Source: Candidatus Kaiserbacteria bacterium (lineage in GTDB: Bacteria > Patescibacteriota > Minisyncoccia > Phycocordibacterales > UBA2100). Taken from it: DNA of 64,000 bases. Every line of letters starts with the position of its first letter. Within the stretch, counting starts at the first letter, position 1. The stretch spans positions 64,852 through 128,851 of the forward strand of contig JACPLC010000005.1 of NCBI GenBank assembly GCA_016186695.1. Direction: 5' to 3'. A program made the position numbers and the translations under genes. The notes beneath the pieces are model-generated. The model did not search any database. It was given only the letters and a program-made list of their open reading frames with translations, and was not told the origin of the DNA. Below, piece after piece: positions 47,199 through 64,000 of this stretch.

Positions 47199-48236
47199 TT
47201 AAAGAATGAGGAGCTCTCCGGAGAGAAGTGTGCCACTCCAGAGAAGAAAGCCGATAAGTGCCAAAAGGCCGATGCCGCGGATGAGCGAAGGCACGTGCAT
47301 ACGGCGTAATCCGGAGAGAAACATGAGGCTCATCACAAGGAGCACGAGCGCGGCGAGCGCCATGTATATATATTGAAGTGTCGTTTTCGGCGCCGTGGCG
47401 ATCCGCCAGAATGGATTTGTCGAATCTGCCCCGTCTTTGAGCGCGCCGACCGGCTGCGATCCATCAGAAACAGCGGCAAGCGCTTCCCCTTCCCACTTCA
47501 CCGCGATGAACATCTCGTCTTCGACGATCGTCTCGAGCGCTGAGGCAGTTGCGCCGGCCACCCGCGATGAGCCGTCGGAAGAAGGAGACGAGCCTGCGAT
47601 CGCCACAGCGCCCGCTTGCGCCGGCGCGCCGAACATCTGCACGACGAACGTCGTGTCGTAGCCTTGGTAGCGACCGTGTGCAAGCGCGATGCCGATTTCG
47701 CTGAAGTGCGAGCTCAAAATATTCGCGCGGTGCTTTGGCGAATTCATCCATGCACTTTCCACCTCGGCCGAATCCGAAAAGTAGACCGCGAGATTCTCGC
47801 CCGCAAAGCGGAAATCGTAGCCCGCTTGTTCAAACCAGTGCCACGGGTCAAAACCCTCGGGCGATTCGTGCGCAAAGTATTCTTTGCCTGCCATGTCGTC
47901 TGCCTTCATTTGCGCCGCCTCCTGCAGCGTGGGGCTCATCACGAGTGCAGGCAGGCCGTCGACCGAGCGGTCTTCGTTGGCAAGGTCTACCAAAACTGCC
48001 GCGATGACGGCGCCCACCTGTTCCGAAGGCGTCGTGAAGACAAGCCTCTGCACGCCGTGCGCGATCAGAAAAAGGAGAACAACTATTGCGACATTGATGG
48101 CAATCGCCTGAAATTCGAGGAATTGCGGCCGGTGGGCATTGTGCGCGCCGGGAATGAAATAGTGATGGATCATCCTTCGTTTTCTTCGCGAAGGCAGGCG
48201 CTTTTTCGGCAGCTTCATCGCGAGATTATATCGCAA
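47199..48236 (-). CDS. Membrane-anchored CAP (SCP/PR-1/YkwD-like) domain protein.
   Basis: FAGENLAVYFS and WMNSPKHRANILSSHFSEIGIALA match the CAP/YkwD motifs. An N-terminal TM is present. Confidence 0.6.
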   Translation of the reverse strand: MRYNLAMKLPKKRLPSRRKRRMIHHYFIPGAHNAHRPQFLEFQAIAINVAIVVLLFLIAHGVQRLVFTTPSEQVGAVIAAVLVDLANEDRSVDGLPALVMSPTLQEAAQMKADDMAGKEYFAHESPEGFDPWHWFEQAGYDFRFAGENLAVYFSDSAEVESAWMNSPKHRANILSSHFSEIGIALAHGRYQGYDTTFVVQMFGAPAQAGAVAIAGSSPSSDGSSRVAGATASALETIVEDEMFIAVKWEGEALAAVSDGSQPVGALKDGADSTNPFWRIATAPKTTLQYIYMALAALVLLVMSLMFLSGLRRMHVPSLIRGIGLLALIGFLLWSGTLLSGELLIL

Positions 48237-48251: not shown

Positions 48252-48461
48252 CTATGCCGCCTCGAGCAGATGTTTGTTGCGCTGGAAGTTGACCACGTAG
48301 CGGCAGAGCGAGGCGATGCTCACGAGGAAAAAAAGTGCGGTGAGAACGAGGAAGCAGAGCGCGAGCCAGAAATTTCCTGATTGCATAAGGAGGTACCCTG
48401 CATACATCCCCAAAGGCGAAAAAGACGTGCCGAGTGATACTGTTCCGCCGAAGTGGATCAT
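48252..48461 (-). CDS. Small 2-TM protein translationally coupled to the GT2 gene (ATGA overlap); PgaD-like by context only.
   Basis: MIHFGGTVSLG...LALCFLVLTALFFLVSIASL. Its start codon overlaps the GT2 stop codon. Confidence 0.4.
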   Translation of the reverse strand: MIHFGGTVSLGTSFSPLGMYAGYLLMQSGNFWLALCFLVLTALFFLVSIASLCRYVVNFQRNKHLLEAA

Positions 48462-49723
48462 GGTAGTGGTAGCTGTACGCGCGTGCCCCAGTGCCCTTCG
48501 GTATAGCCGCACGCGCGGAAGATGCGTACGCCCGCTCGCACGAGAAACGTCGGGCGAAGACGCATACTCTGCTTCAGCACGTTGAACGAGTGAAAAAAGT
48601 ACGAACCGACGAGCGCGACCGTCATGAGATAGCTGTAGAGAAACTCCGGCACGAGCAAAAGCCGTATGAGCCAATCCCACGCATCCTTCTCTTTATAGAA
48701 TCGCATCAGCCAGAGCTGGAACGTGTAGGTGATGCCGAGTTGAAGGAGCGAGAGCGTAATCACGATGTCGGCCACATACGGCGGCACGTCGCCCTCACCC
48801 CGCAGAAAAAGCAGAATTCCTATCATGAGGAGCATCGAGACGAAAAGCGTATGCCCGAGAATATCCTGAAAAACGGACGAGAGGCTTCGCGCGCCCGCGA
48901 CGACGGTAACTCCGCCGTACGACCATCGCGTGCGCTGGCGCCAGAGGCGCGAGAGACCTTCTGGCACCACTGTCCACGCGGGCGCATTTACCGCGGATTT
49001 TACGCTCCAGCCCTGCGCTTTAAGACGCGCGGTCACCTCGTAATCCTCGATCAAGTGGCTCTCGGAGAATCCTCCGAGCTCACGGAGCGCACAGGTACGG
49101 AAGGCAGTGAGCATCCCGTGCATCACCAAGGGCCCGCGGAAAAATCCTTCGTCGGCCATGCGAATCGCATTGAAGCCGAGGTACTCGAGCCCTTGCAGGC
49201 GGGTAAGCAGATTTTTGTTTTTGTTGAAGACACGGCTTTGCGAGCACACCGCGCCAAGTTCCGGTGAGCTCATGAGTTCTGTCACGAGATTCCTCACCGT
49301 GTTTTCGGCGATCACGACGTCGTCGTCGAGCGTGAGAACGACGTCGGGATACCTGCGCCCCTCGGCGAAAATGCGCGCGAGTGCGTGGTTGAGTGCTCCT
49401 GCTTTGAGCTTGTTCTCGGGCGTGCGTAAGAGGGTGACGCGCTTTGAGATAGTCGCGATGCGTTTGAAGATTGCCTCGCTCCCCTCCTCTCGAGGAGTGC
49501 AATCGTCGACTACGTATACGAGAAGGTTTGGGCTCGAGCGGAGGAGTGCCTGAATGAGCCGCACGGTGAGTGCTCGCGGTTTGTAGGTGGGAACGATCGC
49601 GGCGATGGTCGCATTTCCGAAATCGAACGGCACCCGCTCATGATGAGCGGGCAGAATGAAATGTCCGAGCGTTATTCTCGGAGGTTTTGGGGTGTGAACA
49701 CCCTTTACGGAAGATGCTTCCAT
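48458..49723 (-). CDS. Processive family-2 glycosyltransferase (PgaC/IcaA/cellulose-synthase-like).
   Basis: DDC and DDD (DxD-type) motifs, the QxxRW motif (WRQRTRW), and about 5 C-terminal TM. Confidence 0.75.
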   Translation of the reverse strand: MEASSVKGVHTPKPPRITLGHFILPAHHERVPFDFGNATIAAIVPTYKPRALTVRLIQALLRSSPNLLVYVVDDCTPREEGSEAIFKRIATISKRVTLLRTPENKLKAGALNHALARIFAEGRRYPDVVLTLDDDVVIAENTVRNLVTELMSSPELGAVCSQSRVFNKNKNLLTRLQGLEYLGFNAIRMADEGFFRGPLVMHGMLTAFRTCALRELGGFSESHLIEDYEVTARLKAQGWSVKSAVNAPAWTVVPEGLSRLWRQRTRWSYGGVTVVAGARSLSSVFQDILGHTLFVSMLLMIGILLFLRGEGDVPPYVADIVITLSLLQLGITYTFQLWLMRFYKEKDAWDWLIRLLLVPEFLYSYLMTVALVGSYFFHSFNVLKQSMRLRPTFLVRAGVRIFRACGYTEGHWGTRVQLPLP

Positions 49724-49883
49724 ACAATGCGCCGATTTCCTCCCGCGCGCGCATCGAACGTGCGTTCCAATAAGGATATTGCAAAACAATATCGGGACAA
49801 CTATACAGCCCTACGGAAGTGTGTCTCAAGCGGCCTGAAATGCTGATGAATCTCCGACATTCCGACATATCGAGCAGAGTTAT

Positions 49884-51758: not shown

Positions 51759-53153
51759 TTACAGGGTGTCTGCCTGAAGAACTGCCTCCGAATGCTTGCC
51801 CGAAGGGTCGGTGTGTCCTGCACCGAGTGCTTCTCCTGCTGCGACGAGTGCGTCGCGAACGTCGCTCCAGAGCGCTCCGGGGTTGTTTGCTATGTAGAGC
51901 GCGGCGGCGCCGGCGGCATGCGGGCTCGCCATCGAAGTGCCGCTTATGCTTTTATATCCGCTCTTCAACCATGTCGAATAGATAGAGACACCGGGAGCGC
52001 CGATGTCGACGGGCGTTCCCCAGTTGCTGAAGGAAGCGAACGTGTCGTCGGCTCCATAGGCTGTAGCAGCGCCTCCGCCTCCCGACAAACCATTTGAATC
52101 CGCGAGCGCTGAGACAGTAATGACAGCATCGTCGTAGGCAGCAGGCACGAAGCCCGCGGCGTTTGCACCGGAATTCCCCGCTGCAACGACGATCGTCACG
52201 CCCGCGTCGCGCGCGCGGCAGATTGCCTTGTGCAGTGCATCGTTGTTGGAGTTGCCGCAATTGTTGTCGGAAACACCGCCGCCGCCTAAGCTAAGGTTTG
52301 CGACCGTGATGGGCCCGCCGTTTTTGGGCGCCTTGCTCGTCACGAAATCAATGCCGCAGATAACGCTCGACCACGACCCGCTGCCTGCATTATTGAGTAC
52401 GCGGACAGCCCACAATTTCGCCGATGGAGCGACGCCCACGACGCCGACGCCGTTATCGAGGGCCGCGATCGTGCCCGCCACGTGCGTGCCATGACCGTTT
52501 CCGTCGTTGTAGCTGGAGCCGGTCGAGCAGTTCTTGCCGCCGACGATGTTTGTTTTGAGATCGGGATGGCTCAGCTGTATCCCCGTGTCGATGACTGCGA
52601 CGTTGACTCCCGCTCCCTTATTGCTCAAGAATTCTGCATCTATGCGATTGATGCCTGTCGGCAGCGTTTGCAGCGAGGCCTTAACAGCTTCCGTGGTCGG
52701 CGATTCATCAGAGGGTGGAGGCGACGGAGGCGGTGCGGGAGGAGGAGGCTTGCGACGGTGCGATTCTGCACCTACATCGTCGCGAGCACCACGCACGCGG
52801 ACGGACTCCGCAATAGATACGATCCTGTCCTCGCTCACGAATGCGACGCGCGGATCGTTCGCGACCACTGCAAGGTCACTTTCTGAAAAACGCGCCGCAA
52901 AACCGGTGAGCGCGCTTCGATACGAGCCGAGCCGCTCGCCGCCTGCGCGTGCGATGATCTCCTGTTCCGCGGAATCTGCATCAACAGAGTCTTGCAAGAC
53001 GACGATGTACTGCCCCTCGATGCGAGCCTCGCGCACTGCCCTTTCGTCCCGTTCGCGCACATCTTCACCGAAGATGAGCTGAGGGATGATCAATAATGAA
53101 AAAATAACAAGCAGTATAGCGCTCAAAAAGCCACCCTGACTCATCGCTTTCAT
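51759..53153 (-). CDS. Secreted subtilisin-like serine protease (S8) with an I9 propeptide and a Pro-rich linker.
   Basis: Catalytic D (VAVIDTG), H (HGTHVAG) and S (GTSMASPHAAG) are present, along with PPPPAPPPSPPPS. The track start is 53189 (MSEIG...); a signal-peptide-proximal Met lies at 53153. Confidence 0.85.
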   Translation of the reverse strand: MKAMSQGGFLSAILLVIFSLLIIPQLIFGEDVRERDERAVREARIEGQYIVVLQDSVDADSAEQEIIARAGGERLGSYRSALTGFAARFSESDLAVVANDPRVAFVSEDRIVSIAESVRVRGARDDVGAESHRRKPPPPAPPPSPPPSDESPTTEAVKASLQTLPTGINRIDAEFLSNKGAGVNVAVIDTGIQLSHPDLKTNIVGGKNCSTGSSYNDGNGHGTHVAGTIAALDNGVGVVGVAPSAKLWAVRVLNNAGSGSWSSVICGIDFVTSKAPKNGGPITVANLSLGGGGVSDNNCGNSNNDALHKAICRARDAGVTIVVAAGNSGANAAGFVPAAYDDAVITVSALADSNGLSGGGGAATAYGADDTFASFSNWGTPVDIGAPGVSIYSTWLKSGYKSISGTSMASPHAAGAAALYIANNPGALWSDVRDALVAAGEALGAGHTDPSGKHSEAVLQADTL

Positions 53154-53404
53154 GGCATAAAATGTATCACGATTCCCGATCTCCGACAAGATGCCAAAAA
53201 TCAGGGTTTATGAAGTTTATGCACACCTCACGCTGCCTTCACGCTCCCACACCTACAGTGCATGATAGGATTTTTTGTACAAGCATAGGCCGAGGTCTGG
53301 GAAACCAGCGGTCAGTACAGCGTTGCTGTTTCGATGCCTGAAACCTAAGGTGCCCGCACATGAGCTGATGCGTTTGTTTATCCGTTTATTAATTTTATTC
53401 TTGT

Positions 53405-54100
53405 ATGGAAACGGCAAGAAATGTGTCCGTAGTGGTGCTCGCTTTGGCGGTTTTTAGCCTCCTCGCGGCATCGATTGCGTTTGCAGACATTAATAGCAGT
53501 TCATTCACGGTGACCGTTGAGAATTCAGGTACGATCACCAACACCGCTTCGTCAACGGCCGAAACGGGAGACAACACCGCAACGGGTAGCACGGGCGGCG
53601 CCGGAGGAGGCGGTGGCTCGGTAACCGCAGGCGCGGGAGACTTTAACAACGGAGGAGCGACCGCCGGCAATGGCGGCAATGGTGGAAACGCGGATGACGG
53701 CGGAGATGTCACGACCGGTGCCGCCACATCGGCTGCAGAATCCACAAACACGCTCAACGACACCGAGATCGATATCGATGTCGCGTCGACAACGGTCGGC
53801 AATATCAACAGCACAGCTATCACTGCCACCTCTACCTCGACTGGTGCGGTAACAAATGATACCCGTTCGAGAGCTCGCACCGGCGGCAACAGCGCGACGG
53901 GAAGCACAGGCGGCGCGGGCAGCTCGGGCGGAGCAGTAACCTCCACAAGCGGCAGCAACAACAACGGCGGAGCCATCGCTGGCAGCGGTGGAAGCGGTGG
54001 CACAACTGGCTTCGGCGGGACGATCAACACGGGACCGAGCAACAGCACGGCCTCCAGCACCAACGTGATGAATAGGCTTCGGATTAGAATCTCACTCTAA
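53405..54100 (+). CDS. Secreted Gly/Asn/Thr-rich protein with two tandem modules. The internal module ends in an acidic strand (TEIDIDV); the C-terminal module ends basic (...NVMNRLRIRISL).
   Basis: Signal peptide METARNVSVVVLALAVFSLLAASIAFA. Modules contain TG.N.ATGSTGGAGG...NNGGA.AG.GG.GG. Confidence 0.65.
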   Translation: METARNVSVVVLALAVFSLLAASIAFADINSSSFTVTVENSGTITNTASSTAETGDNTATGSTGGAGGGGGSVTAGAGDFNNGGATAGNGGNGGNADDGGDVTTGAATSAAESTNTLNDTEIDIDVASTTVGNINSTAITATSTSTGAVTNDTRSRARTGGNSATGSTGGAGSSGGAVTSTSGSNNNGGAIAGSGGSGGTTGFGGTINTGPSNSTASSTNVMNRLRIRISL

Positions 54101-54157: not shown

Positions 54158-55258
54158 TCAAGAAAAGCTGATCGGGAGAGGCTCCGGTCTTCGCAAGAAC
54201 AGGTAGAGATACATGAAGCCGAGAAGTGCCGAAGTAAAGGAGAATACGAGGAGTCCCAGAGCATCCGCCCCGCCGGCTCCTGCGTTTGGAACTCCCGGCT
54301 CGCCTTGCGGTCCTCCCATAAAATCCGGTATAGGGGTGACCGCGCCGGCAACTTGGCCGGAGGGCGCTCCACCGCTCGAACCTCCACTCGAGCCGCCCGA
54401 ACTGCTTCCACCCGAACTGCCACCACTCGGCCCTCCTCCACTCGAGCCGCCCGATGGCCCTCCGCCGGTAGATCCGCCGCTCGGCCCACCGCCAGACGGC
54501 CCGCCTCCGCTATCGCCTCCCTGCCCGCCGGGACCCTCATCGTCATTAATAATGGTGCAGGTTTTAATGTCGCCCGCGGTGAGCGTAACGCGCCCCGAGG
54601 AATCGCAATCGCCGCTAAATTCCGGTACGTACTTCTGCGTTGTAGTTCCGACAGTCACACTCGTCGTTGCTTCCGAAACAATATACGTACCCGCAAGAAA
54701 TGTCCTCTGTACACCGGATTGGACGGTCGTCGAGCCGACGCGAAGCGTGAAGTCGGTCGTCGTTGCGCTCCCCTTGTCGTCGTTGATGACGATTTTAATG
54801 AGCGTGAGTTTGGGCGAGCCGGGCGGAGGCGGGCCATTCGGGCACGCCGGTACGTCGAATTGCGGTATCGGCTCGCCCGCGCTATTGAGAAGCGGAAAAA
54901 CAATGCAGTATTTTATTTGAGAGCCGAGGTCCGCTCCGGGCGTGGAAGGAGCGGCTGCAGTAGAGGGAGCGGAGGGAGAAGAAGGAGAATCGGGGGTTGC
55001 GGGGTCCCGCGTTGCTCCGATATCGGGAAACTGCACCGTCGGAGAATTTGGAGCCTCCGGCTTTGCAGGTATCGTCGGAAGGGCCGGAATCGTCATCGCG
55101 GGCAAAACGCGGGCGCTCTCTCTCGTTTCGTCACGAGATGCCCGCTCCGGCGAACGGTCGGTGTCAGAGTATGCAAACGTCGCGAGCAGCCAGAAAAACT
55201 GCGTGAGAACGAAAAGACTTATGAGGAGTAGGTTACGAAATGTGGTCGTGGTCGCCAT
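54158..55258 (-). CDS. Secreted protein with a Pro-rich region, a Gly/Ser linker (GGPSGGGPSGGSTGG...) and a C-terminal hydrophobic anchor followed by RRPE.
   Basis: Signal peptide MATTTTFRNLLLISLFVLTQFFWLLATFAYS. C-terminus ALGLLVFSFTSALLGFMYLYLFLRRPEPLPISFS. Confidence 0.55.
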   Translation of the reverse strand: MATTTTFRNLLLISLFVLTQFFWLLATFAYSDTDRSPERASRDETRESARVLPAMTIPALPTIPAKPEAPNSPTVQFPDIGATRDPATPDSPSSPSAPSTAAAPSTPGADLGSQIKYCIVFPLLNSAGEPIPQFDVPACPNGPPPPGSPKLTLIKIVINDDKGSATTTDFTLRVGSTTVQSGVQRTFLAGTYIVSEATTSVTVGTTTQKYVPEFSGDCDSSGRVTLTAGDIKTCTIINDDEGPGGQGGDSGGGPSGGGPSGGSTGGGPSGGSSGGGPSGGSSGGSSSGGSSGGSSGGAPSGQVAGAVTPIPDFMGGPQGEPGVPNAGAGGADALGLLVFSFTSALLGFMYLYLFLRRPEPLPISFS

Positions 55259-55494
55259 GCGCACGCCCCACCCCATAGTTTCCCGATACGAAGCAGCGCA
55301 GAAACATTGTAGATGGCCAAAATTAAGGACTCATGAACGAAAAACCTGATAATAGGGGGAAAGTCGGTAGGTAACCCTGTGCACAACCGGGGTACAGCTA
55401 TGTGCATAACCGGAAATCTCCAACAAATCAAACAAAAATCGCGACAGTGTGTTTCCGAGGAATCTTCCGCGAGCCTGTATCCCAATCAAAGCGA

Positions 55495-56110: not shown

Positions 56111-57322
56111 CTAGCAGTTGAGGACGGTGTTGGTGCCACCGCCAGCATTGCAGGTGTCGAAGTCGGGACCTCCATCGATGAAATCGTTTCCTCCAAGAGT
56201 AGTCACCGTATCTTCTCCGGCACCTGCGAAAACTTTGTTTTTGCCCCCGCCTGCCGAAATCGTGTCGTCACCATTACCCGTCTTTATCTGGTCATCTCCG
56301 TCTCCCGCGGTTACTATCTTGTTGCCATTGCCAGCGAGAACCGTGTTCTTCCCTGCACCTGCAGAAATCACTGACACTCCAGCGCCTATTTTTACGGTGT
56401 CGTTTCCATCTCCCAGACAAATGATGAAGTCACCATTTCCAGCGATTACTTTGTCATTGCCCCCCTTCCCCACAAACATCGTGAACGACGAAAGTGTCAC
56501 CGTGTCCCGGCCGGGCCCGCCATTCATCAACGTATAGCCTGCTGGAGCGACCGTCGGCGTGTCACATGCGTTTGCGGGAACTGATGGAATGTCGTTTGTT
56601 GCAGGCTTCACAGCGACGACTGGCTCATCCGCTTCTCTTGCAGAGGAGATATTGATCGTCATAGTCTCTGTTCCTGCGGTCGAGGCTGCGGACTTGAATG
56701 AGCCCGCGGTCCAGCCCATATCGCTTGTGGTGGGAACCATGAACTCCGTCTCGCCCGCACCGTATGACAACCATGTCGCGGTCTCCCACTTGGGGAGTGA
56801 AAGGAGAAGGGTGTTGCCCACGGTCGTCGTGACAGACGTAGAGTTTGAGGACTGACTACCCTCAAAAGTCACATTGGAAACGTCTACGGAGCTTGATTGA
56901 GCAGCGTCTTGAAGGGTGAAGACCGCGTAGTCGGCGAAAGTGGCACTTACAAAGTTGATCTCAAAGGGACCTGTCGATGGATTTGCGAGATAACCGACGT
57001 AGTAGCAGGCTCTGTTGAATGTTCCCGGGATACCAGAAATGGTGAGCGATGTTCCGTTCTGTGTAGCTGATATGGGCGCGGTGGGACAATCATTTTTTGA
57101 GATGAGAGCGATGAGAAGTTTGTTCGTGCCCCCAGAGGGTACCGTGTATTCGAAAGAGTGCGAGGTGGTATCGATGGCCTTCTGCATCGGCACAGGAAGT
57201 GAGTCGAGGATCGAAGGCGTTGTTGAGGCAGCATGAACAGCTGTAAAGAGTGTGCTCAGCGCGAACGCCATCGCGAAAATCGCAATCACTATTGTCGTGG
57301 ATATTGCTTCGTATCTAGTCAT
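56111..57322 (-). CDS. Secreted or membrane-anchored protein with C-terminal RTX-like (hemolysin-type Ca-binding, GGxGxDxUx) repeats.
   Basis: GNGDDTISAGGGKNKVFAGAGEDTVTTLGGNDFIDGG and GKGGNDKVIAGNGD. N-terminal TM/signal. Confidence 0.6.
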   Translation of the reverse strand: MTRYEAISTTIVIAIFAMAFALSTLFTAVHAASTTPSILDSLPVPMQKAIDTTSHSFEYTVPSGGTNKLLIALISKNDCPTAPISATQNGTSLTISGIPGTFNRACYYVGYLANPSTGPFEINFVSATFADYAVFTLQDAAQSSSVDVSNVTFEGSQSSNSTSVTTTVGNTLLLSLPKWETATWLSYGAGETEFMVPTTSDMGWTAGSFKSAASTAGTETMTINISSAREADEPVVAVKPATNDIPSVPANACDTPTVAPAGYTLMNGGPGRDTVTLSSFTMFVGKGGNDKVIAGNGDFIICLGDGNDTVKIGAGVSVISAGAGKNTVLAGNGNKIVTAGDGDDQIKTGNGDDTISAGGGKNKVFAGAGEDTVTTLGGNDFIDGGPDFDTCNAGGGTNTVLNC

Positions 57323-57397: not shown

Positions 57398-58867
57398 CTA
57401 ACGAAACCGTATCCGCGTGAAGTTGAGTGAATTCAGCGTCCTCCCGACACTGCTCGAGTTGCCCGTTAGAACGGCACCGCTTGTGCTTCCCGATCCGCCT
57501 GCGCCGCCGCTACCAGCCGTAGCCCCGCCGTTGTTTTCGTCACCGAGAGAGCCGCCAATGTCGCCACCGGTGCCGCCGGTACCGCCCGCGCTTCCGAGCC
57601 CGATGTTCTGACCCGTGTGAGAACGAGCCGAGGTCGTGTTGTTAATCATGCCACCATTGCAAACTTTCACCCGTATGCTCCCAGTGAGTGGAGGCGGACA
57701 GACTTCTAATTCAAACGCGCCTATATCACACCCCGGGCCTTGAGGCCGCGTAATACCCCGCTGGTCTGTAGTAACGGTGCAGGAAAGAAGTGGCACGGCA
57801 TCGATGGCAGGGCTTCCCGCAAGAAGTGCGTGCGTTTCTGTCTCGCCGCCATTGTTCTGGAGCGGACCAAGCAGCGGATCCGTGCTATTGAGGTCCCCTG
57901 TACCCCCGAGGGCACACGAGGCGTCGCTTGCTATGTTGTGCCCGAGGGAAGTAATGCCTCCAGCACAGTCGTCGGAGGGAGTTGCTGCTGTGTTTGAACT
58001 GACGATGGAGTTCTCCAGCGTCATGGTGCCCCCGAAGTTCCAGATGCCGCCGCCATTGTCGGTAGCGGTGTTATCGGTGATCGTCGCGTGCGTGATAAGC
58101 ACGGTACCGAACCTGTTGAAGATACCGCCGCCGTTCAGCGCGGTGTTTCCGCTAATAGTGCTGTTAGTAATGGTTATCGTCGGGTCGGCGCCGTAGATGC
58201 CGCCCCCGCGCCCTATCGTGCTGTTGCCGCTCACCGTGCTTCGCGTCAGTGTGAGCGTGCCCGAGCTGAAAATGCCTCCGCCGCCGCCGCTGGTGTTGGA
58301 ACCGAGCAGAATATTGTCGCTGACGGTCGTATCAGTCAGAGTGAGAGTGCCCGTATTCAAAATACCGCCACCGAAATTTTCGCCTGTGTTATCGGTAACG
58401 ATACTCTTAGTCAGCGTTAGAGTGCCTGCATTCAGGACGCCGCCGGCGCCTGCGCCCGCCTCGGGATCGCCGTTTTGGATCGTGACTGCGTCGATCAGGA
58501 CTGTCACCCCAGAGAAAACAGTGAGCACCCTGTCGATGCCGCCTCCGTCTATGATAGTGGTCGCTGCCCCTGCGCCACTCACGGTTAGGTCGTCTGTGAT
58601 GTCCAAGTCGCCGGTCGCATTCAGATCTTCTCCTGTGCCGACGATGCTAAGTGTGTACGTGCCAGCCGGTAGTGTGACGACGTCGGCGCCAGCGAGCGCA
58701 TTCGCTGCCCCTATTGCTTCCCGCAGAGAGCAGTCGGCATCACACACACCGTCATTAGTGTCCGCAGTTTTGGTGACGGTGAATGTGGCGGCGAGCGCCG
58801 GCGTGGCGAGCGTTAGCGGCACGAGCGCTACCCCAACAACGATAATCCTAGCAAGCAGAGTTTTCAT
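57398..58867 (-). CDS. Secreted CSLREA-domain (choice-of-anchor Q) right-handed beta-helix protein, ending in the shared Gly-rich module and ...LNFTRIRFR.
   Basis: CDADCSLREAIGAAN, then roughly 10 beta-helix rungs (GGGI.N.GTLTLT.STVSGN), then TSARSHTGQN...ENNGGATAGSGGAGG...NFTRIRFR. Confidence 0.65.
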   Translation of the reverse strand: MKTLLARIIVVGVALVPLTLATPALAATFTVTKTADTNDGVCDADCSLREAIGAANALAGADVVTLPAGTYTLSIVGTGEDLNATGDLDITDDLTVSGAGAATTIIDGGGIDRVLTVFSGVTVLIDAVTIQNGDPEAGAGAGGVLNAGTLTLTKSIVTDNTGENFGGGILNTGTLTLTDTTVSDNILLGSNTSGGGGGIFSSGTLTLTRSTVSGNSTIGRGGGIYGADPTITITNSTISGNTALNGGGIFNRFGTVLITHATITDNTATDNGGGIWNFGGTMTLENSIVSSNTAATPSDDCAGGITSLGHNIASDASCALGGTGDLNSTDPLLGPLQNNGGETETHALLAGSPAIDAVPLLSCTVTTDQRGITRPQGPGCDIGAFELEVCPPPLTGSIRVKVCNGGMINNTTSARSHTGQNIGLGSAGGTGGTGGDIGGSLGDENNGGATAGSGGAGGSGSTSGAVLTGNSSSVGRTLNSLNFTRIRFR

Positions 58868-58898
58868 AAAGCGTAAGTGTTTTAGTCATAGCGTGTGG

Positions 58899-59570
58899 CT
58901 ATCGGCCGATGCGAACCACGGTGTGGTTCGCTACGTTCGTAGAGAACGAACTCGAAGAGGTCGTGCCGGAGGAAATGCTCCCCTGACTCACGGCCGAGCC
59001 GCCGTTCCCGCCGTTTCCGGCCGATGCGCCTCCGTTGTTGTCGGCGCCGCCGGTGCCGGAAACATCCCCGCCGTTTCCGCCAACGTATCCGTTTCCGCCG
59101 TTCCCTGCGCTTGCGCCTCCGTTGTTGCTAGTGCCGCCACCGAGCGATGCGACGTTGCCTCCGTCGCCAGCATTCCGTCCCGAGCCTCCGCTCCCCGCCG
59201 ATGAGCCGCCGTTGTTGCTTGAGCCGCCGCCGGAGCTGCTGACATCGCCTCCGTTGCCCGCATCATATCCATTGCCGCCATTCCCCGCCGATGAGCCGCC
59301 GTTGTTGCTCGAGCCGCCCGAAGCAGAGCTCGATCCGCCATTTCCGCCGACCTGCCCGCTTCCGCCACTGCCCGCAGAACTTCCTCCATTGTTCCCTGAA
59401 CCGAACGCGGAGAACAAGCTACTGCCCGAGGTGCGCTCAAGCCGTTCGCTCTGCACACGGATCATCGCCGCCTCGGCGAAGTACGGCAGTGTTATGAAAA
59501 CAACCGCAGAGACGAGCACCCCGATCGCAAGTCCGAGGACGGCAATTTCTTTCTTTTCCAGAAATTTCAT
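58899..59570 (-). CDS. Secreted Gly/Ser/Asn repeat protein (about 27-aa repeats SNNGGSSAGSGGSG.NGGNGG...), ending ...NHTVVRIGR.
   Basis: N-terminal TM, then about 6 repeats, then the C-terminal motif. Confidence 0.6.
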   Translation of the reverse strand: MKFLEKKEIAVLGLAIGVLVSAVVFITLPYFAEAAMIRVQSERLERTSGSSLFSAFGSGNNGGSSAGSGGSGQVGGNGGSSSASGGSSNNGGSSAGNGGNGYDAGNGGDVSSSGGGSSNNGGSSAGSGGSGRNAGDGGNVASLGGGTSNNGGASAGNGGNGYVGGNGGDVSGTGGADNNGGASAGNGGNGGSAVSQGSISSGTTSSSSFSTNVANHTVVRIGR

Positions 59571-59600: not shown

Positions 59601-62600
59601 CTAATTTCCAAAAAACCAGCCGCCGATAGTGCTTACGTTGAAACGGCCGGCGCCACGCGAGTTCGTACTGTCTTCCTTCTTTGGCTCCTTCTTGGCCGTC
59701 GGTTTAGGTTTCGCTGCAGCCGCAGGCTTCTTGGGAGCCGGAGTTGACACCGACTCGGGAGCTACAGCGACAGGCGCCTGCGCCGCAGCGACAGGTTCCG
59801 AAACAGGAGCTGCGCCGCCGCAGTAGACCGCATTGATCTTTTTCAGCGTCGAAGCGTACACACTGCCGGTGCCGCGTGTGAGTCCGAAGGGGGCGAGAAC
59901 CTCGCTCGTGTGTTTTTCCTGGAATGTGCTGACTGCTGCTGCCGTCAGCGCACCATAGAAGCCGGATATCGGAAGATTCGAGCCGACATCGAAGTTCAGA
60001 AATGCTTGCAGCTTTTTGACCTCAAGCGTATTCGTCGAACCACGGCGCAGGTATGTGGATAGAAGCGGGCTACATGCCGCTGCTGCTGCGGGAGGCGGCG
60101 TCGCTGCCGTTGCCGTTGAAGCCCCCAAGACTTTTCCTTCGGCAAAGGTCACGTCTCCCCACCCTTCTGCAGGCGGCATTTTGCTTACCATCGGCGCAAA
60201 TGTCGTTTCGTTGCGCTGACCCGTGATGCGTCCGACGTTACGATAGGTGCCGGGCTTGGTTTTGAGGGCATCGAATTCCACCGTGTAGGTAAGGGTTACC
60301 TGATCTCCGGCTTCAAGAGCGCCAAGTTTCCAGCTGCGCGTGCTAAGCGGCCTGTTCCAGGGGTCATAGAGAATATCGGAAAGAGTCGTGTGGTATGCAG
60401 GTCGGGCCCACTTGTCGTTCGTCACGACCACTTTGTAGTCGATAAGGATAGAAGAAGCTGTGGTGCTCGCCGAGAGTGTTGCACTCTTCGAAACTGTTAT
60501 TTTGGGATCGACATTGGGGTCTGCTGTGGAGATCCCCGGTGTCGATGTCGCAAAAACGAAGACAACAGGAACCGGGCCGCCGCTCGAAGAGCCGGCGGTT
60601 GTCGGAAGGCCTCCGCCTCCACCACCTCCGCCGCCCCCACCACCACCGCTCGAAGACCCTGAGCTTGTCGAAGGGCTACCACCGCCCCCGCCTCCGCCTC
60701 CGCCCCCGCCCGAGGAACTGGAACCAGAGGAATCCCCTCCGCCGCCGCCTCCACCAGAAGATCCTGAGGAAGATGAATCCCCTCCGCCGCCGCCACCGCC
60801 CGAGGAATTGGAATCCGAGGAACCGCCTCCTCCGCCGCTTCCACCAGAGGATGAATCGGTTGATCCTCCGGGAGAGCCCGAACCAGAGTCGCCACTGCCC
60901 GAGGAGCCTCCCTCACTTCCGGTATTTGAACTTGTGCCGATGACATTGACCGTCACGGTGCTCGTGTTGTCACTCTCATTTTGATCATGCTCCGCGCCCA
61001 CGACCCTCACGTTCATTGAAACGGGCACGGTTGCTCCTTGAGAGAGACCCAAAAGACGCACGGGGCCTTTTGCGGAGTATGCACGCGTCTCCCCTGGCAA
61101 AAGGGTCCCGAGATTCCATTTGATGCCTGTCTCCGTTTCAAGAGCACCGCTCGACACTTGCGAAAGAGAGAGCTGGCTCCTGTCGTACGTTGCGTGCAGG
61201 GCGACGTTGCTTGCGGCTTTGTCACCGTTATTCCGAACGGTGAACTGATACTGCACTTCTGAATTTGGCTGAGAGGTCGTCGGACTCACGCTCGCGGAGA
61301 CCGAGAGATCCGGATTACTGCCTCCGAAGTTAATGTTGCCGTTCCAGTCTCCGTAGATGTTGAAAATACCGAGGACCCAGTTTCGGTTCACGATGTTGGT
61401 GTTCACCATGTTGATGACGTTGGCCGTCGCGAACGCATCACCCGAGCGCACCGAAGCGATACCGTCCTCCACCGCACCTGTGTTATTACCCGTTTCCGCG
61501 ATGACCTCCACATCGGTCTGCACCTTTGCAAGGTTCGTCGATGAAGCGAGGAACGACGACGAGTTCAGGATGCCCGTCGAGCCCGAGGTGCGCTGTCTCG
61601 GGCCGGAAACGATCTCAAACCCGTAGTCCGTCTCGTGCGCCGTAAGTTCGCGCGGCAGGCCGACGACCGAACCGTTCCAATTACCCCACACGCGAAAGAT
61701 GAAATGCACAGAAGCTCCGCCCACCCTTGTTTGGTTCGCCGAGGTATAGCTCTTCGAAGAAGATCGCGCGAGGCCGGTTACCACCTCCCCGTGTCCGAGC
61801 GCAGTCGAGCTCGCCGTGTTGCCGCCGGTCACCGCGCGTGCGGTCGTCGTCCCGAAGAAGTCCTCGTCATTCGTATTGTCGACGACGAAGGAACTCGAGT
61901 TCATGGTCGGCAGTGAAGAGGTCCCGTTCAAAAGCGCGCCGAAGAATTTCTCGTCGGGAAGAACGATGTCTTCCTGCAGGTCGCCGAAGCTGCTCGCCGA
62001 AACGAGGAGGTAGCTCGAGTTGATGAAGTTGGTGTTCACGAGGTTCAAGACGTTGGCAGAGGCATACGCGCTCCCGGTATCGATCACGGCGTCCCCGGCA
62101 TCAGTCGAGGTCGCCGAGTTCGCGCCTGTCGTTGCACGTACCAATACTTTGTTCGTTACGGTTGCGGTGTTGTTGTTGAGAATATCCAAATCGGCGCTGT
62201 TGAGACACGTGAGAATCGTACAGCCGAGCTCTGTGGGGCTATTCCCCGGACCCTGCTCAGAGAAGTATGAAAGATCAAAATCCCGCAGATCCAGTCGATC
62301 TCCCGTCGAAGAATTGAGGAAGAGCACAAGTCCGTCGGAGTTGAAAAGGTTGGTATTCACGACGTTTGTGACCTCGGCAGTGGCTATCGCCTTGCCCGTG
62401 GCGATCAGCGCTGTGCCGCCGGTACCACCCGTAGCTTGGTTTTCCCCCGTAAACGCTCGGGCTTGTCCATCGGTCGTAAGCTCGGCATCGTTCGTGGCGG
62501 AAGAGGTGATGTGAGAGCTGTTTGTTTTCCCCGGCGCGTCTACGTTCGTGCGTGTGATGTTCAAGACGTTGTGAACCGTCGTCGTTGCCGTCGCATCTCC

Positions 62601-63266
62601 TGTCAATACCGTCCCGCCGATCTTCGCACCCGTGCCGTCACCGGAGACTGCCGACCTGAAGACAGGCTCGTCGGGTGCTGCCGCCTCGGTCGTTGTTGCA
62701 CTGACGTCGATGATCGGCTTATCGGGATTTGGCGGCTTCGCGGTCCCCACATTGGTAAAGTCGGTATTGTCCGTGCCACTCTCCTCCGGCGCTACATCCC
62801 CCGAACTCGTCGAAGAAGTGGACGAAGCAGAAGGATCTCCCGCGTCTGTTGCGGTCGTACCCGGCCCGCTTGCCGCGAACAAGCTCGGCTCCGGCGCACT
62901 CGAACCCGACTCTACTTGAGAGGATGACTCTGATGGAGGAGGTGGCGCTGGCGACTCTTCCGGAGCCGGCTCTGCGGGCGTTCCCGTCTCGGTAGAGGTT
63001 TCGCTCGTCCCCGCGGTCCGGTCGCGCTCCGCCCGTGGGCTCGTGGGATCTGTTGATGTTGCTTCCTGCGCAAAGGCGCTCGGTATCGGCGTGATGCCGA
63101 CGACAAGCGCCACCATCACCGTAAGTGATAGTGTGCGCATGATGGATATTGACCCCGTTAGAGAACCAGTCCCGTAAAAGAGATTCAGCCGTCCCGAATA
63201 CGCCGTTCGATACGGGAAGGCACCCAAGCGCCGTTTCTCTAACGGGGTTGACATCTTCTTATCCAT
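59601..63266 (-). CDS. Giant secreted cell-wall-associated protein with N-terminal AR.xTG.N...VNTN..N repeats, a jelly-roll-like region, two DUF11-like repeat domains, a poly-Gly linker and a C-terminal peptidoglycan-binding (PG_binding_1) domain.
   Basis: PG-binding LRRGSTNTLEVKKLQAFLNFDVGSNLPISGFYGALTAAAVSTFQ. DUF11-like PDLSVSASVSPTT...FTVRNNGDKAASNV. The start is ambiguous: GTG 63299 in the track, ATG 63266 in the conserved RBS context, or ATG 63140 directly before the hydrophobic signal MRTLSLTVMVALVVG. Confidence 0.6.
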   Translation of the reverse strand: MDKKMSTPLEKRRLGAFPYRTAYSGRLNLFYGTGSLTGSISIMRTLSLTVMVALVVGITPIPSAFAQEATSTDPTSPRAERDRTAGTSETSTETGTPAEPAPEESPAPPPPSESSSQVESGSSAPEPSLFAASGPGTTATDAGDPSASSTSSTSSGDVAPEESGTDNTDFTNVGTAKPPNPDKPIIDVSATTTEAAAPDEPVFRSAVSGDGTGAKIGGTVLTGDATATTTVHNVLNITRTNVDAPGKTNSSHITSSATNDAELTTDGQARAFTGENQATGGTGGTALIATGKAIATAEVTNVVNTNLFNSDGLVLFLNSSTGDRLDLRDFDLSYFSEQGPGNSPTELGCTILTCLNSADLDILNNNTATVTNKVLVRATTGANSATSTDAGDAVIDTGSAYASANVLNLVNTNFINSSYLLVSASSFGDLQEDIVLPDEKFFGALLNGTSSLPTMNSSSFVVDNTNDEDFFGTTTARAVTGGNTASSTALGHGEVVTGLARSSSKSYTSANQTRVGGASVHFIFRVWGNWNGSVVGLPRELTAHETDYGFEIVSGPRQRTSGSTGILNSSSFLASSTNLAKVQTDVEVIAETGNNTGAVEDGIASVRSGDAFATANVINMVNTNIVNRNWVLGIFNIYGDWNGNINFGGSNPDLSVSASVSPTTSQPNSEVQYQFTVRNNGDKAASNVALHATYDRSQLSLSQVSSGALETETGIKWNLGTLLPGETRAYSAKGPVRLLGLSQGATVPVSMNVRVVGAEHDQNESDNTSTVTVNVIGTSSNTGSEGGSSGSGDSGSGSPGGSTDSSSGGSGGGGGSSDSNSSGGGGGGGDSSSSGSSGGGGGGGDSSGSSSSGGGGGGGGGGGSPSTSSGSSSGGGGGGGGGGGGGLPTTAGSSSGGPVPVVFVFATSTPGISTADPNVDPKITVSKSATLSASTTASSILIDYKVVVTNDKWARPAYHTTLSDILYDPWNRPLSTRSWKLGALEAGDQVTLTYTVEFDALKTKPGTYRNVGRITGQRNETTFAPMVSKMPPAEGWGDVTFAEGKVLGASTATAATPPPAAAAACSPLLSTYLRRGSTNTLEVKKLQAFLNFDVGSNLPISGFYGALTAAAVSTFQEKHTSEVLAPFGLTRGTGSVYASTLKKINAVYCGGAAPVSEPVAAAQAPVAVAPESVSTPAPKKPAAAAKPKPTAKKEPKKEDSTNSRGAGRFNVSTIGGWFFGN

Positions 63267-63273
63267 GTTTTCT

Positions 63274-63398
63274 TCTCTGAGGCCTCGAATTTTTACCACT
63301 CATATCCATGGTGGTCAAGACCTCATGAGAAGGAGGGACCGTCGGCGGAATCCGATGCATCGAGTCGAACTGCGTTCGGTCCCTTTCTTCTCTCGTTC
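63274..63398 (-). promoter_or_regulatory. Conserved intergenic/leader unit, copy 2 (it carries insertions relative to copy 1).
   Basis: The boxes GGTCCCTCCTTCTCATGAGGTCTTGA and TCGAGGCCTCAGAGA are shared with 57328..57393. Confidence 0.45.
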
Positions 63399-63430: not shown

Positions 63431-64000
63431 CTACAAGCGAACACGAATAATGGTCGTGTTCAGGAGGTTGATCGTGCCGGAAGTCGAGCTTGCAGCGCCC
63501 GTGTGGATTTCTCCACCGAGGCCGCCAGCGCCGCCTGAGCCACCAGTACCAGCCGATGCACCACCGTTGTTTTCGCTGCCACCTGCGCCGTCAATGTCGC
63601 CACCGACGCCGCCAGTGCCACCGATGCTTCCGTCCGCGAGGTTCTGGCCAGAGCGACCGCGAGCCTGCGTTACGTTGTTGATGGCGTTGTCGTCATCGTC
63701 GTTGTCAGTCGTGACATCAAGAGTGACGCTGTTTATGTCGCCACAGTCACAAGTGAATTCGACGTCGACATCCGTGCCGTTGAGGCTGTTCTCCGTGCCG
63801 GCGTCAGCCGAGGCGTCGCCCGTTTGCACGAAGCCGCCTGCGCCGCCGTTGCCGCCGTTTCCACCGTTTCCGGCAGAAGCGCCGCCGTTGTTCTCACTGC
63901 CACCGCCACCGTTGACGTTGCCGCCGTTGCCGCCGTTGCCGCCAATGCTTCCGAGCGCAACGTTCTCCCCTGTGTGAGAGTCAGCCTGCGTCAGGTTATT
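63431..64000 (-). CDS. Partial CDS (the N-terminus lies beyond the right window edge): secreted Gly/Asn-rich protein with two tandem C-terminal modules. The internal one ends acidic (TDVDVEF); the terminal one ends ...LLNTTIIRVRL.
   Basis: The frame stays open from 63829 to 64000 by hand translation (...TQADSHTGENVALGSIGGNGGNGGNVNGGGGSENNGGASAGNGGNGG...). Confidence 0.6.
   Translation of the reverse strand, partial: NNLTQADSHTGENVALGSIGGNGGNGGNVNGGGGSENNGGASAGNGGNGGNGGAGGFVQTGDASADAGTENSLNGTDVDVEFTCDCGDINSVTLDVTTDNDDDDNAINNVTQARGRSGQNLADGSIGGTGGVGGDIDGAGGSENNGGASAGTGGSGGAGGLGGEIHTGAASSTSGTINLLNTTIIRVRL

Follow-up and report, generated by a model that had tools for sequence, protein, structure and literature searches.

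We analysed a 64,000-nucleotide stretch of DNA from a Candidatus Kaiserbacteria bacterium (NCBI GenBank assembly GCA_016186695.1, contig JACPLC010000005.1, positions 64,852 to 128,851), which as a whole is called the window below, and in it the gene of a small secreted protein, here named P1, which consists of two tandem Gly/Asn-rich repeats or modules. Both modules end in an amphipathic strand, which is acidic in the internal module and basic in the C-terminal module. The charge asymmetry of this last strand is under selection throughout a large protein family and appears to encode electrostatically the stacking of the repeats and possibly of whole molecules. P1 has the following features, with nucleotide positions counted from the start of the window.

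53405..54100, forward strand: P1 gene, 231 amino acids (aa); signal peptide, then two tandem Gly/Asn-rich modules and nothing further
53405..53485, forward strand: predicted Sec signal peptide, aa 1-27, cleaved between ...SIAFA and DINSS; hydrophobic core and A-x-A site
53489..53782, forward strand: module 1, aa 29-126; strand A, Gly-rich tip, strand B
53585..53704, forward strand: Gly-rich tip of module 1, GSTGGAGGGGG...NNGGATAGNGGNGG...
53756..53782, forward strand: internal acidic strand, N118-D-T-E-I-D-I-D-V126, positions 90-98 of the module hidden Markov model (HMM)
53804..54097, forward strand: module 2, the C-terminal copy, aa 134-231
53900..54019, forward strand: Gly-rich tip of module 2
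54071..54097, forward strand: C-terminal basic strand, N223-R-L-R-I-R-I-S-L231, with the stop codon directly after it

The first 27 residues are probably a Sec signal peptide. The AlphaFold2 (AF2) model of P1 has a helix at aa 8-20, within this region, and the junction equivalent to the cleavage site, AFA followed by A[IV]NS, is kept across the alignment of homologues. The mature N-terminus of P1-type proteins lies 1-2 residues ahead of strand A and the chain stops at strand B. The module HMM matches P1 at aa 29-125 (E 2.8e-30) and at aa 134-230 (E 7.2e-28). An open reading frame (ORF) of 222 aa antisense to P1 (53395-54063, reverse strand) was rejected as a shadow ORF and not a gene. Other antisense ORFs rich in Pro, Ala and Val, for example one of 335 aa at 58197-59204, are artefacts of GGN/GCN codon repeats.

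The module family and the charge of its terminal strands

A word-indexed search with P1 found 50 homologues with E-values down to 6e-52, mostly of about 230 aa and with two modules, some of which are named Candidatus Kaiserbacteria. An exhaustive profile search gave 627 cluster representatives (50% identity) at E <= 1e-3. The family statistics below are based on a pooled set of 255 homologues, from which 510 modules were extracted with the module HMM, built from both halves of the alignment. Exactly two well-aligned modules, the second of them C-terminal, are present in 214 of the 255 proteins. The module pair is always C-terminal, and 234 modules end 0-4 residues from the end of the protein. 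All named sources of the family are Patescibacteria, namely Kaiser-, Taylor- and Adlerbacteria, Parcubacteria and Paceibacteria, in a taxon list that was drawn with the alignment of close homologues and a single peptide pattern and is thus biased to the close subfamily.

When all module proteins were scanned, neither Pfam nor NCBIfam had a family that covers the module, and a profile search of the Protein Data Bank (PDB) sequences returned Gly-linker artefacts only. In the literature we found no report on the module family, on polyglycine II in bacteria of the candidate phyla radiation (CPR) or on CPR amyloids. The module is an undescribed Gly/Asn-rich hairpin repeat of about 98 aa, without a relative in Pfam, NCBIfam or the PDB. 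The linker between the modules has a C-x-C motif (CGC, CAC or CDC) in 139 of 230 two-module proteins and P1 is one of those that lack it. This motif could be a strained intrachain disulfide, a metal site or an inter-subunit cross-link. Genes for DsbB and thioredoxin-like proteins are found near the syntenic clusters of two related loci, L001 and L003.

A preliminary description of the window, made from the DNA and its translations, had reported that internal module copies end in an acidic strand and C-terminal copies in a basic one. Translation of both two-module proteins in the window confirms this. The second of these genes is only partly within the window.

63431..64000, reverse strand: 3' part of the second two-module gene, which runs past the window end; orthologue of the main Kaiserbacteria subfamily
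63755..63781, reverse strand: internal acidic strand, NGTDVDVEF
63737..63754, reverse strand: inter-module linker, TCDCGD, with a C-x-C motif
63434..63460, reverse strand: C-terminal basic strand, NTTIIRVRL, then stop

This gene product is 63-66% identical to the homologues P0020 and P0037. A 132-aa ORF with a GTG start listed at 63431 is an artefact of the gene being cut by the window end. Among the C-terminal sequences that had been named as examples, RIRISL and IRVRL do belong to the two-module proteins, whereas RIRFR comes from a separate gene (57398-58867, reverse strand).

The same dichotomy is conserved across the 255-protein set. In terminal modules, Lys or Arg is found at HMM position 95 in 222 of 234 and at position 97 in 137 of 182 cases, and 227 of 234 are net positive over positions 91, 93, 95 and 97. 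In internal modules, Asp or Glu occupies position 93 in 149 of 243, position 95 in 130 of 243 and position 97 in 110 of 194 cases; over the same four positions 167 of 243 are net negative, 34 neutral and 42 positive. The terminal strand is thus basic with hardly an exception, and the acidic internal strand is a majority rule. The consensus of the protein end is VNxVN[RT]N[VI]TR[IV]RR-COOH in the broad family and LLNTTxxRVR[LIM]-COOH in Kaiserbacteria. S8/kexin-type cleavage at RxR was rejected as an explanation of this end because nothing follows the motif, and an outer-membrane beta-signal because the chain does not end in an aromatic residue and the bacteria are presumably monoderm. Few proteins have more than two modules; in the three-module protein P0135 the net charges alternate (+1/-3/+2), and in the four-module protein P0058 they do not.

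Modules within one protein are 56% identical, compared to 45%, 43% and 40% for module comparisons between proteins, which indicates that the modules of one protein probably evolve in concert. At most exposed positions they also carry charges of the same sign (767 same-sign pairs with 393 expected). The charge asymmetry of strand B persists despite this, and therefore selection maintains it across the family.

Fold of the module and relation between the two repeats

The stem of the module has a strict two-residue periodicity in both halves, with one face conserved and the other variable. The conserved face consists of V6/8, N10/12, A14, V16, N18, T20, A22/24 and T26 in strand A, and of A83, V85, N87, V89, N90, N/T92, T94 and V96 in strand B. 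Mean-field direct coupling analysis (DCA) on 367 modules (effective number of sequences, Meff, 350) gave an antiparallel ladder with i+j ~102-105, which runs from 8-94 to 45-57. Its top pairs are 20-85, 18-87, 10-94, 22-83 and 10-92, and it also includes 12-90/92 and 14/16-89. In the Gly-rich part the couplings are 29-72, 31-62/71, 33-60, 36-65/68, 39-66, 42-59 and 45-54/57/59, and those at 36-65/68, 39-66 and 33-60 show a period of 3. The coupled positions change together: positions 10/92/94 switch jointly between N/N/T (112 modules) and [TVI]/T/[VLI], and positions 20-85 between T-T and V-V. Two pairs are nearly invariant, N12-N90 in 379 and N18-N87 in 365 of 409 modules, and all four Asn residues are conserved in internal and terminal modules alike.

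These couplings show that each repeat of about 98 aa folds back on itself and that its last strand packs on its own first strand. The preliminary description had suggested that the terminal strands could be exchanged between molecules. The couplings 8-94, 10-92/94 and 12-90/92 give the last strand a partner within its module, so it is not a spare or donor strand, and this part of the suggestion is not supported. The charged positions 91, 93, 95 and 97 alternate with the coupled positions 90, 92, 94 and 96, so the charged residues lie on the variable face, which we take to be exposed to solvent. Salt bridges between strands A and B of the same module were rejected as an explanation of the charges, since opposite charges are not enriched there (opposite/expected 1.04 at i+j = 104).

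At the turn of the tip (HMM positions 44-56, P1 aa 72-84 and 177-189), Asp and Glu are found at equal positions of both modules well beyond expectation; position 44, for example, has 55 same-sign pairs between modules, with 32 expected. These acidic residues beside GGxG runs resemble RTX-type Ca2+ sites.

The fold also bears on another claim of the preliminary description, that each terminal strand is preceded by a conserved N-x-T/S sequon and that this hints at glycosylation next to the strand. Five of the six strands do follow N-x-T, but the basic strand of P1 itself follows N-R-L, with the nearest sequon, N213-S-T, 10 residues upstream, and the NSS that had been counted sits at the start of P1 module 1 and not beside a terminal strand. 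Across the family, 72% of the terminal and 85% of the internal modules have a sequon that starts at N90 or N92, and GT2 (glycosyltransferase family 2) and other sugar genes lie near module genes, which would be in favour of N-glycosylation that modulates the strand. The positional conservation is weak, however. The register shifts between N90-x-T92 and N92-x-T94, N90-x-S/T is found in 93 of 234 terminal (40%) and 120 of 243 internal modules (49%), and at position 92 Asn is about as frequent as Thr. The sequon density of 4.77 per protein equals what composition predicts (4.42). PglB needs Asp or Glu at position -2 of the sequon, and the family profile has neither there. No STT3/PglB-type or GT41-type glycosyltransferase was found among the window proteins scanned with Pfam, only the GT2 protein at 48458-49789, which flanks the surface cluster in the window and in L001 and fits a polysaccharide synthase better than a protein glycosyltransferase. 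The residues of the supposed sequon belong to the co-varying packed face (N12-N90 and the 10/92/94 triad), so their conservation is explained without invoking glycosylation. The N-x-T motif is thus, on the evidence of covariation, part of a packed Asn/Thr face and not a glycosylation signal, and a glycosylation site ahead of each strand is very unlikely.

To see how the two modules relate, we compared charges at equivalent positions of both modules of the same protein. At some strand B positions opposite charges are in excess: position 75 has 16 opposite and no same-sign pairs (Fisher p = 0.002), position 82 has 22 opposite pairs with 12.2 expected and position 91 has 11 with 5.5 expected. Positions 95 and 97 contribute 83 and 52 opposite pairs, and position 13 is also over expectation. 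The P1 subfamily has D91/R91 and E93/R93 matched in 4 of 4 full-length members. At position 95 both modules are charged only in the window protein; the position is uncharged in P0001 and P0005 and mismatched in P0062. A search for further members of this subfamily found none beyond P0001, P0005, P0062 and the fragment P0002. Compensatory charge, which had been expected from the preliminary description, is therefore present on strand B but not obligatory, given that 25 of 168 paired proteins have Arg at position 95 in both modules.

A model of P1 was predicted by AF2 with a 128-sequence alignment (mean predicted local distance difference test score, pLDDT, 80.3; predicted TM-score, pTM, 0.50). 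A model made with 41 sequences (pLDDT 54.8) was left out of the fold comparison. The secondary structure assigned by DSSP has elements at 32-55, 58-59, 63, 73-75, 86, 101-103, 107-117 and 120-125 in module 1, each of which recurs 105 residues later in module 2. The main strands are 32-55 and 101-125 in module 1 and 137-160 and 206-230 in module 2. Strand A is unbroken over 24 residues, and strand B is interrupted at the same two places in both modules. The Gly-rich tips have a pLDDT of 88-94 and almost no DSSP strand or helix. We infer from this model that A1 may pair with A2 and B1 with B2, parallel and in register, as two stacked beta-arches. A Foldseek search of the model against the PDB and BFVD found nothing at E <= 0.001, with TM-scores of at most 0.27. 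The best PDB leads, none of them significant, are FapC (9u4u, 9nqd; E 0.06, 0.19), HELLF and ice-binding beta-helices, all of which are parallel stacked folds. It is quite possible, and we propose it tentatively as the best reading, that the two repeats lie in register with Asp/Glu of repeat 1 beside Arg of repeat 2.

Several observations weigh against this arrangement. The in-register pairing is read from a DSSP string, from Foldseek leads that are not significant and from couplings that are confounded: in a paired-module DCA the top couplings all connect a position of module 1 with the same position of module 2, and concerted evolution of repeats also yields such couplings, so they are no proof of stacking. 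The base of the AF2 model, where the charged strands are located, has the lowest pLDDT (66-77). On strand A and the tip, equivalent positions tend to have charges of the same sign, with p = 0.002, 0.0002 and 0.008 for the excess at positions 7, 9 and 21, and such pairs would be unfavourable in a strict in-register stack. In addition, 17% of the internal strands are net positive, the terminal module keeps R95 in the 25 proteins in which the internal module has R95 too, and single-module proteins, which have no acidic partner, keep the basic strand. As R95 is kept without an acidic partner, the Arg must have a role beyond a salt bridge in cis. The two modules may instead form a face-to-face sandwich of two hydrogen-bonded hairpins, in which the acidic and basic faces would be on opposite slab surfaces and could pair only between molecules.

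Module-bearing genes and their neighbourhood

Besides the two-module genes, the window has three further genes with complete or partial modules, and a set of surface-protein genes around them.

57398..58867, reverse strand: W57398, secreted protein of 489 aa; CSLREA N-terminal domain, beta-helix-like repeats, choice-of-anchor Q domain and one C-terminal module
57401-57679, reverse strand: C-terminal module of W57398, aa 397-489; module HMM E 8.5e-25
57401-57424, reverse strand: terminal strand of W57398, NFTRIRFR
58899..59570, reverse strand: half-module protein, secreted, 223 aa; tip-like Gly/Asn repeats and the second half of a module only
58902-58928, reverse strand: terminal strand of the half-module protein, NHTVVRIGR
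59601..63299, reverse strand: adhesin-like protein of 1232 aa; DUF11/CLIPPER, CARDB, Gly/Ser spacer and 3-4 stem-only copies of the module strands
54158-55276, reverse strand: SpaA_2 prealbumin-like protein
56111-57322, reverse strand: RTX calcium-binding repeat protein
51759..53189, reverse strand: secreted subtilase, Peptidase_S8 with I9 propeptide (Pfam); conserved neighbour
47199..48236, reverse strand: CAP-domain secreted protein (Pfam); conserved neighbourhood member
48458-49789, reverse strand: GT2 glycosyltransferase of processive type; matches Glyco_tranf_2_3, Glyco_transf_21 and Chitin_synth_2
44313-46502, reverse strand: bacterial collagen-like protein of 729 aa; collagen triple-helix repeats (E 3.6e-61) and DUF7151

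The remaining window has housekeeping genes in addition to these further surface proteins (collagen-like, CAP, GT2, S8).

W57398 is an example of a module at the end of a longer protein. Its aa 330-387 match the choice-of-anchor Q domain (NF041518) with 93.3 bits (cut-off 25; E 7.7e-27), its N-terminus matches CSLREA_Nterm (TIGR04214) with 40.9 bits (cut-off 25; E 1.3e-10), and the module follows directly behind the choice-of-anchor Q domain, which is found in this paralogue only and not in P1. Elsewhere, choice-of-anchor domains precede an LPXTG, PEP-CTERM, GlyGly-CTERM or type IX secretion system (T9SS) signal. Longer homologues have VWA (4), DUF642 (3), discoidin, NosD or CE2_N N-terminal to the module pair. 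The module pair may best be understood as the C-terminal domain by which Parcubacteria-type CPR bacteria assemble or anchor their surface proteins.

The half-module protein matches HMM positions 39-96 (E 1e-11). Four Gly/Asn repeats of tip type (GSSNNGGSSAGNGGNGY...) are joined in it to the B half of a module, and an A strand is not recognisable. In at least five related loci (L001, L003, L007, L019 and L021) such a gene stands directly behind the two-module gene, and the protein may act as a cap, nucleator or adaptor.

In the adhesin-like protein of 1232 aa, DUF11 and CARDB score over the Pfam cut-offs and a weak match to the wall-binding domain PG_binding_1 is sub-threshold (19.1 bits, cut-off 23 bits). 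Partial module matches at about nucleotides 61380-62645 are stem-only copies, TGxNxA ... TGxAxAxAxVxNxVNTN, without the Gly-rich tip. A ...LLV...FGDWxGNI segment stands after each of these hairpin repeats. Behind them come, in this order, DUF11/CLIPPER and CARDB, a nearly pure Gly/Ser spacer of about 130 aa, a second DUF11-like region, the weak PG_binding_1 match and a Lys/Pro/Ala-rich tail. L001 and L003 have orthologues of this protein, and L029 and L031 have equivalents. The new name of PF01345 (DUF11) is CLIPPER, a CnaA-like isopeptide-bond domain typical of fibrillar-adhesin stalks (PMC12617251).

The gene order of the window is shared by the Kaiserbacteria loci L001 and L003, with the two-module gene, the half-module gene, small secreted proteins, SpaA_2/RTX, a giant protein of 1213-1286 aa and then S8/CAP/GT2. 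The S8 gene is in the same cluster in L003 and beside the two-module gene in L031, and CAP genes are found in L003, L029 and L031. In L029 and L031, whose members are only ~35% identical, the two-module gene is followed by a large PF01345 protein, which also carries stem-only repeats, and a CAP protein. The SpaA_2 protein has a Gly/Ser/Pro-rich stalk and a C-terminal hydrophobic anchor, and the SpaA_2 and HemolysinCabind proteins are fused or adjacent in L001 and L003.

Small secreted proteins of the syntenic clusters that are unrelated to the module also end in the pattern h-x-R-[FL]-R (h, hydrophobic), with the tails ARFR, ARFHR, MTRFR, SRFRK, TRFRDR and RQFSR.

L001: 11368-11517, 14885-15307 and 19319-19879
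L003: 11436-11606, 14109-14513 and 18350-18790
L020: 1620-1775
L021: 6333-6503

A regular-expression scan for other h-x-R-h-R tails found none in the window besides the module proteins and about three small families in the related loci. These tails hint at a shared C-terminal tag.

Assembly models, related systems and significance

The acidic and the basic strand of P1 are the same element in two copies, the last strand (B) of the repeat of about 98 residues. Each repeat runs out on strand A (about 24 residues), through the Gly-rich tip and back on strand B, with the conserved Val, Asn, Ala and Thr faces of A and B packed together, as covariation shows. Two repeats side by side in register would bring Asp/Glu of repeat 1 next to Arg of repeat 2 and may so form an inter-repeat salt-bridge ladder adjoining Asn ladders, following the logic of a two-rung HET-s/HELLF beta-solenoid. 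Owing to the opposite charges, repeat 1 would stack preferentially on repeat 2 (hetero-stacking), and the register would be set. The outer edges of such a unit would be open, and the same interface might be reused between molecules, with repeat 2 on repeat 1 of the next molecule. Passenger proteins with a single module could then dock their basic strand on an acidic repeat, and the stem repeats of the adhesin might act as a base. An electrostatic pairing role is reasonable, and head-to-tail polymerisation is plausible.

Polymerisation may even be the primary function. The two-module proteins would then build a cross-beta, amyloid-like fibre or sheet outside the cell, its acidic and basic rungs alternating along the axis, with passenger and single-module paralogues as minor subunits and the wall-bound CLIPPER adhesin as base or nucleator. 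A two-rung unit as suggested by the DSSP assignment of the AF2 model would leave hydrogen-bonding edges open, and the top structural leads are the fibrils of FapC and HELLF, although not significant. There are several paralogues per cluster, half- and single-module forms included, and the neighbouring large protein with stem-only copies is conserved even in relatives of 35% identity. The linker C-x-C, present in 60% of members, together with the nearby DsbB/thioredoxin-like genes might point to inter-subunit disulfides, and the alternating charges of P0135 are as expected for such rungs. Those of P0058 are not; the same-sign charges of strand A would make repulsive ladders along a fibre, and no dedicated assembly genes were recognised. 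As the primary role, polymerisation appears rather unlikely. The exchange of donor strands, in which the terminal strand would leave its own module and make another molecule's fold complete, the principle of chaperone-usher pili, TasA and archaeal threads, would fit the amphipathic terminal strands with their complementary charge and the neighbouring gene for a B half only. It is hardly credible, since strong covariation ties the last strand to the first within one module, AF2 pairs both in the monomer, and the module proteins have neither an incomplete fold nor a spare extension.

The basic C-terminal strand could also be mainly a retention or sorting tag, for example by binding anionic wall polymers or lipids or by being read by other machinery, with the internal acidity secondary, either neutralising the tag or marking its mere absence. 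R95 is 95% conserved in the terminal copy only, whatever the charge of the internal strand, and the protein ends 0-4 residues past the basic strand in 234 modules. Half-module proteins keep the basic strand as single-module proteins do, the module of W57398 fills the slot behind a choice-of-anchor Q domain, and unrelated small proteins of the syntenic clusters have similar tails (ARFR, SRFRK, TRFRDR). These tails come from about three families, however, and are barely over chance. The module proteins have no transmembrane helix and no known sorting motif, NCBIfam found nothing, and the Arg residues belong to a structured strand, which is packed against strand A. A tag leaves the acidic enrichment of the internal strands (69% net negative, with position-matched pairs) unexplained, and we consider it unlikely as the main role. 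In a combined reading, two-rung units, each a long beta-arch stem with a polyglycine-rich tip, would polymerise head to tail by their opposite charges into a hitherto unknown fibre or layer that grows from the wall-bound CLIPPER adhesin. Passengers (beta-helix, VWA, DUF642, discoidin) would dock on it by their single basic module, so that a charge-coded functional amyloid would double as a new type of surface anchor; this combination, too, is unlikely.

The proposed in-register pairing of the two repeats has its closest parallel in HET-s. The HET-s fold is built of two rungs with Asn ladders, three salt bridges join equivalent positions of its repeats, and repulsive pairs are avoided in homologues (PMC4055769). 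The module family likewise has two pseudo-repeats with conserved Asn at equal positions, Gly turns and, on strand B, opposite charges at equivalent exposed positions. The opposite charges are confined to strand B (positions 75, 82, 91, 95 and 97), whereas strand A and the tip have an excess of same-sign charges; Arg at position 95 of both modules is seen in 25 of 168 proteins. The module is also longer (98 residues compared to 21-36), has a Gly-rich tip and belongs to a bacterial secreted protein. There is no sequence or significant fold likeness to HET-s or HELLF (Foldseek against HELLF: E 9.7, TM 0.09/0.27).

The bacterial functional amyloids CsgA (curli) and FapC (Pseudomonas) are, like the module proteins, secreted and composed of Gly/Asn-rich imperfect repeats with a predicted strand-turn-strand structure. 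The G-x-N-x-A core of the module ('TGxNxA') resembles the curlin motif, which is Q-x-G-x-x-N-x-A. The Pfam scan gave no Curlin_rpt match and neither Pfam nor NCBIfam gave a repeat match for any module protein. The module proteins differ from CsgA and FapC in having two repeats only, always C-terminal, and a presumably monoderm host, and the TM-score to FapC is about 0.1. No CsgG- or FapF-type secretion genes were seen among the neighbours, which encode S8, CAP, SpaA_2, RTX and CLIPPER proteins. The tips in turn resemble polyglycine II bundles, which are known from the snow-flea antifreeze protein and the phage S16 gp38 adhesin and have been proposed for PE_PGRS proteins. The likeness consists of GGx runs (GSxGGxGGxGG, GNGGNGGNGGxGG), couplings of period 3 and a tip pLDDT of 88-94 without helix or strand; it lies in the sequence pattern, the Gly-rich part of the module forms the end of a beta stem, and Foldseek against the PDB and BFVD found no match to polyglycine II structures.

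With donor-strand pilins, TasA and archaeal threads the module proteins share secretion, terminal amphipathic beta-strands and paralogous putative minor subunits nearby. They differ in that the terminal strand has a partner in cis, that there is no incomplete immunoglobulin-like fold, and that no gene for a chaperone, usher or signal-peptidase-like partner is present. The LPXTG, PEP-CTERM and GlyGly-CTERM signals and the C-terminal domain of T9SS substrates occupy the same slot as the module, C-terminal to choice-of-anchor Q or adhesin-type passengers. The module is distinguished from them as a folded repeat of 100-200 residues that also exists alone as a complete secreted protein. An amphipathic strand, for example ...TR[IV]RR or ...RVRL, forms the C-terminus of the module proteins, and NCBIfam at E <= 1 found no LPXTG, PEP-CTERM, GlyGly-CTERM or PGF-CTERM signature at their C-termini.

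CPR bacteria, or Patescibacteria, are thought to live attached to other cells, and to our knowledge almost nothing is known about their surface proteins. The module is a new repeat domain that is widespread in metagenomes, and its cluster with a CLIPPER adhesin, a subtilase and a CAP protein is kept down to 35% identity. The conserved charge asymmetry provides a simple, testable handle on how repeats and molecules assemble. If polymerisation is true, the module proteins would be a new functional-amyloid-like system and a new principle of surface display in ultra-small bacteria. If it is false, the module would still be a new stalk or anchor with a HET-s-like design of inter-repeat salt bridges.

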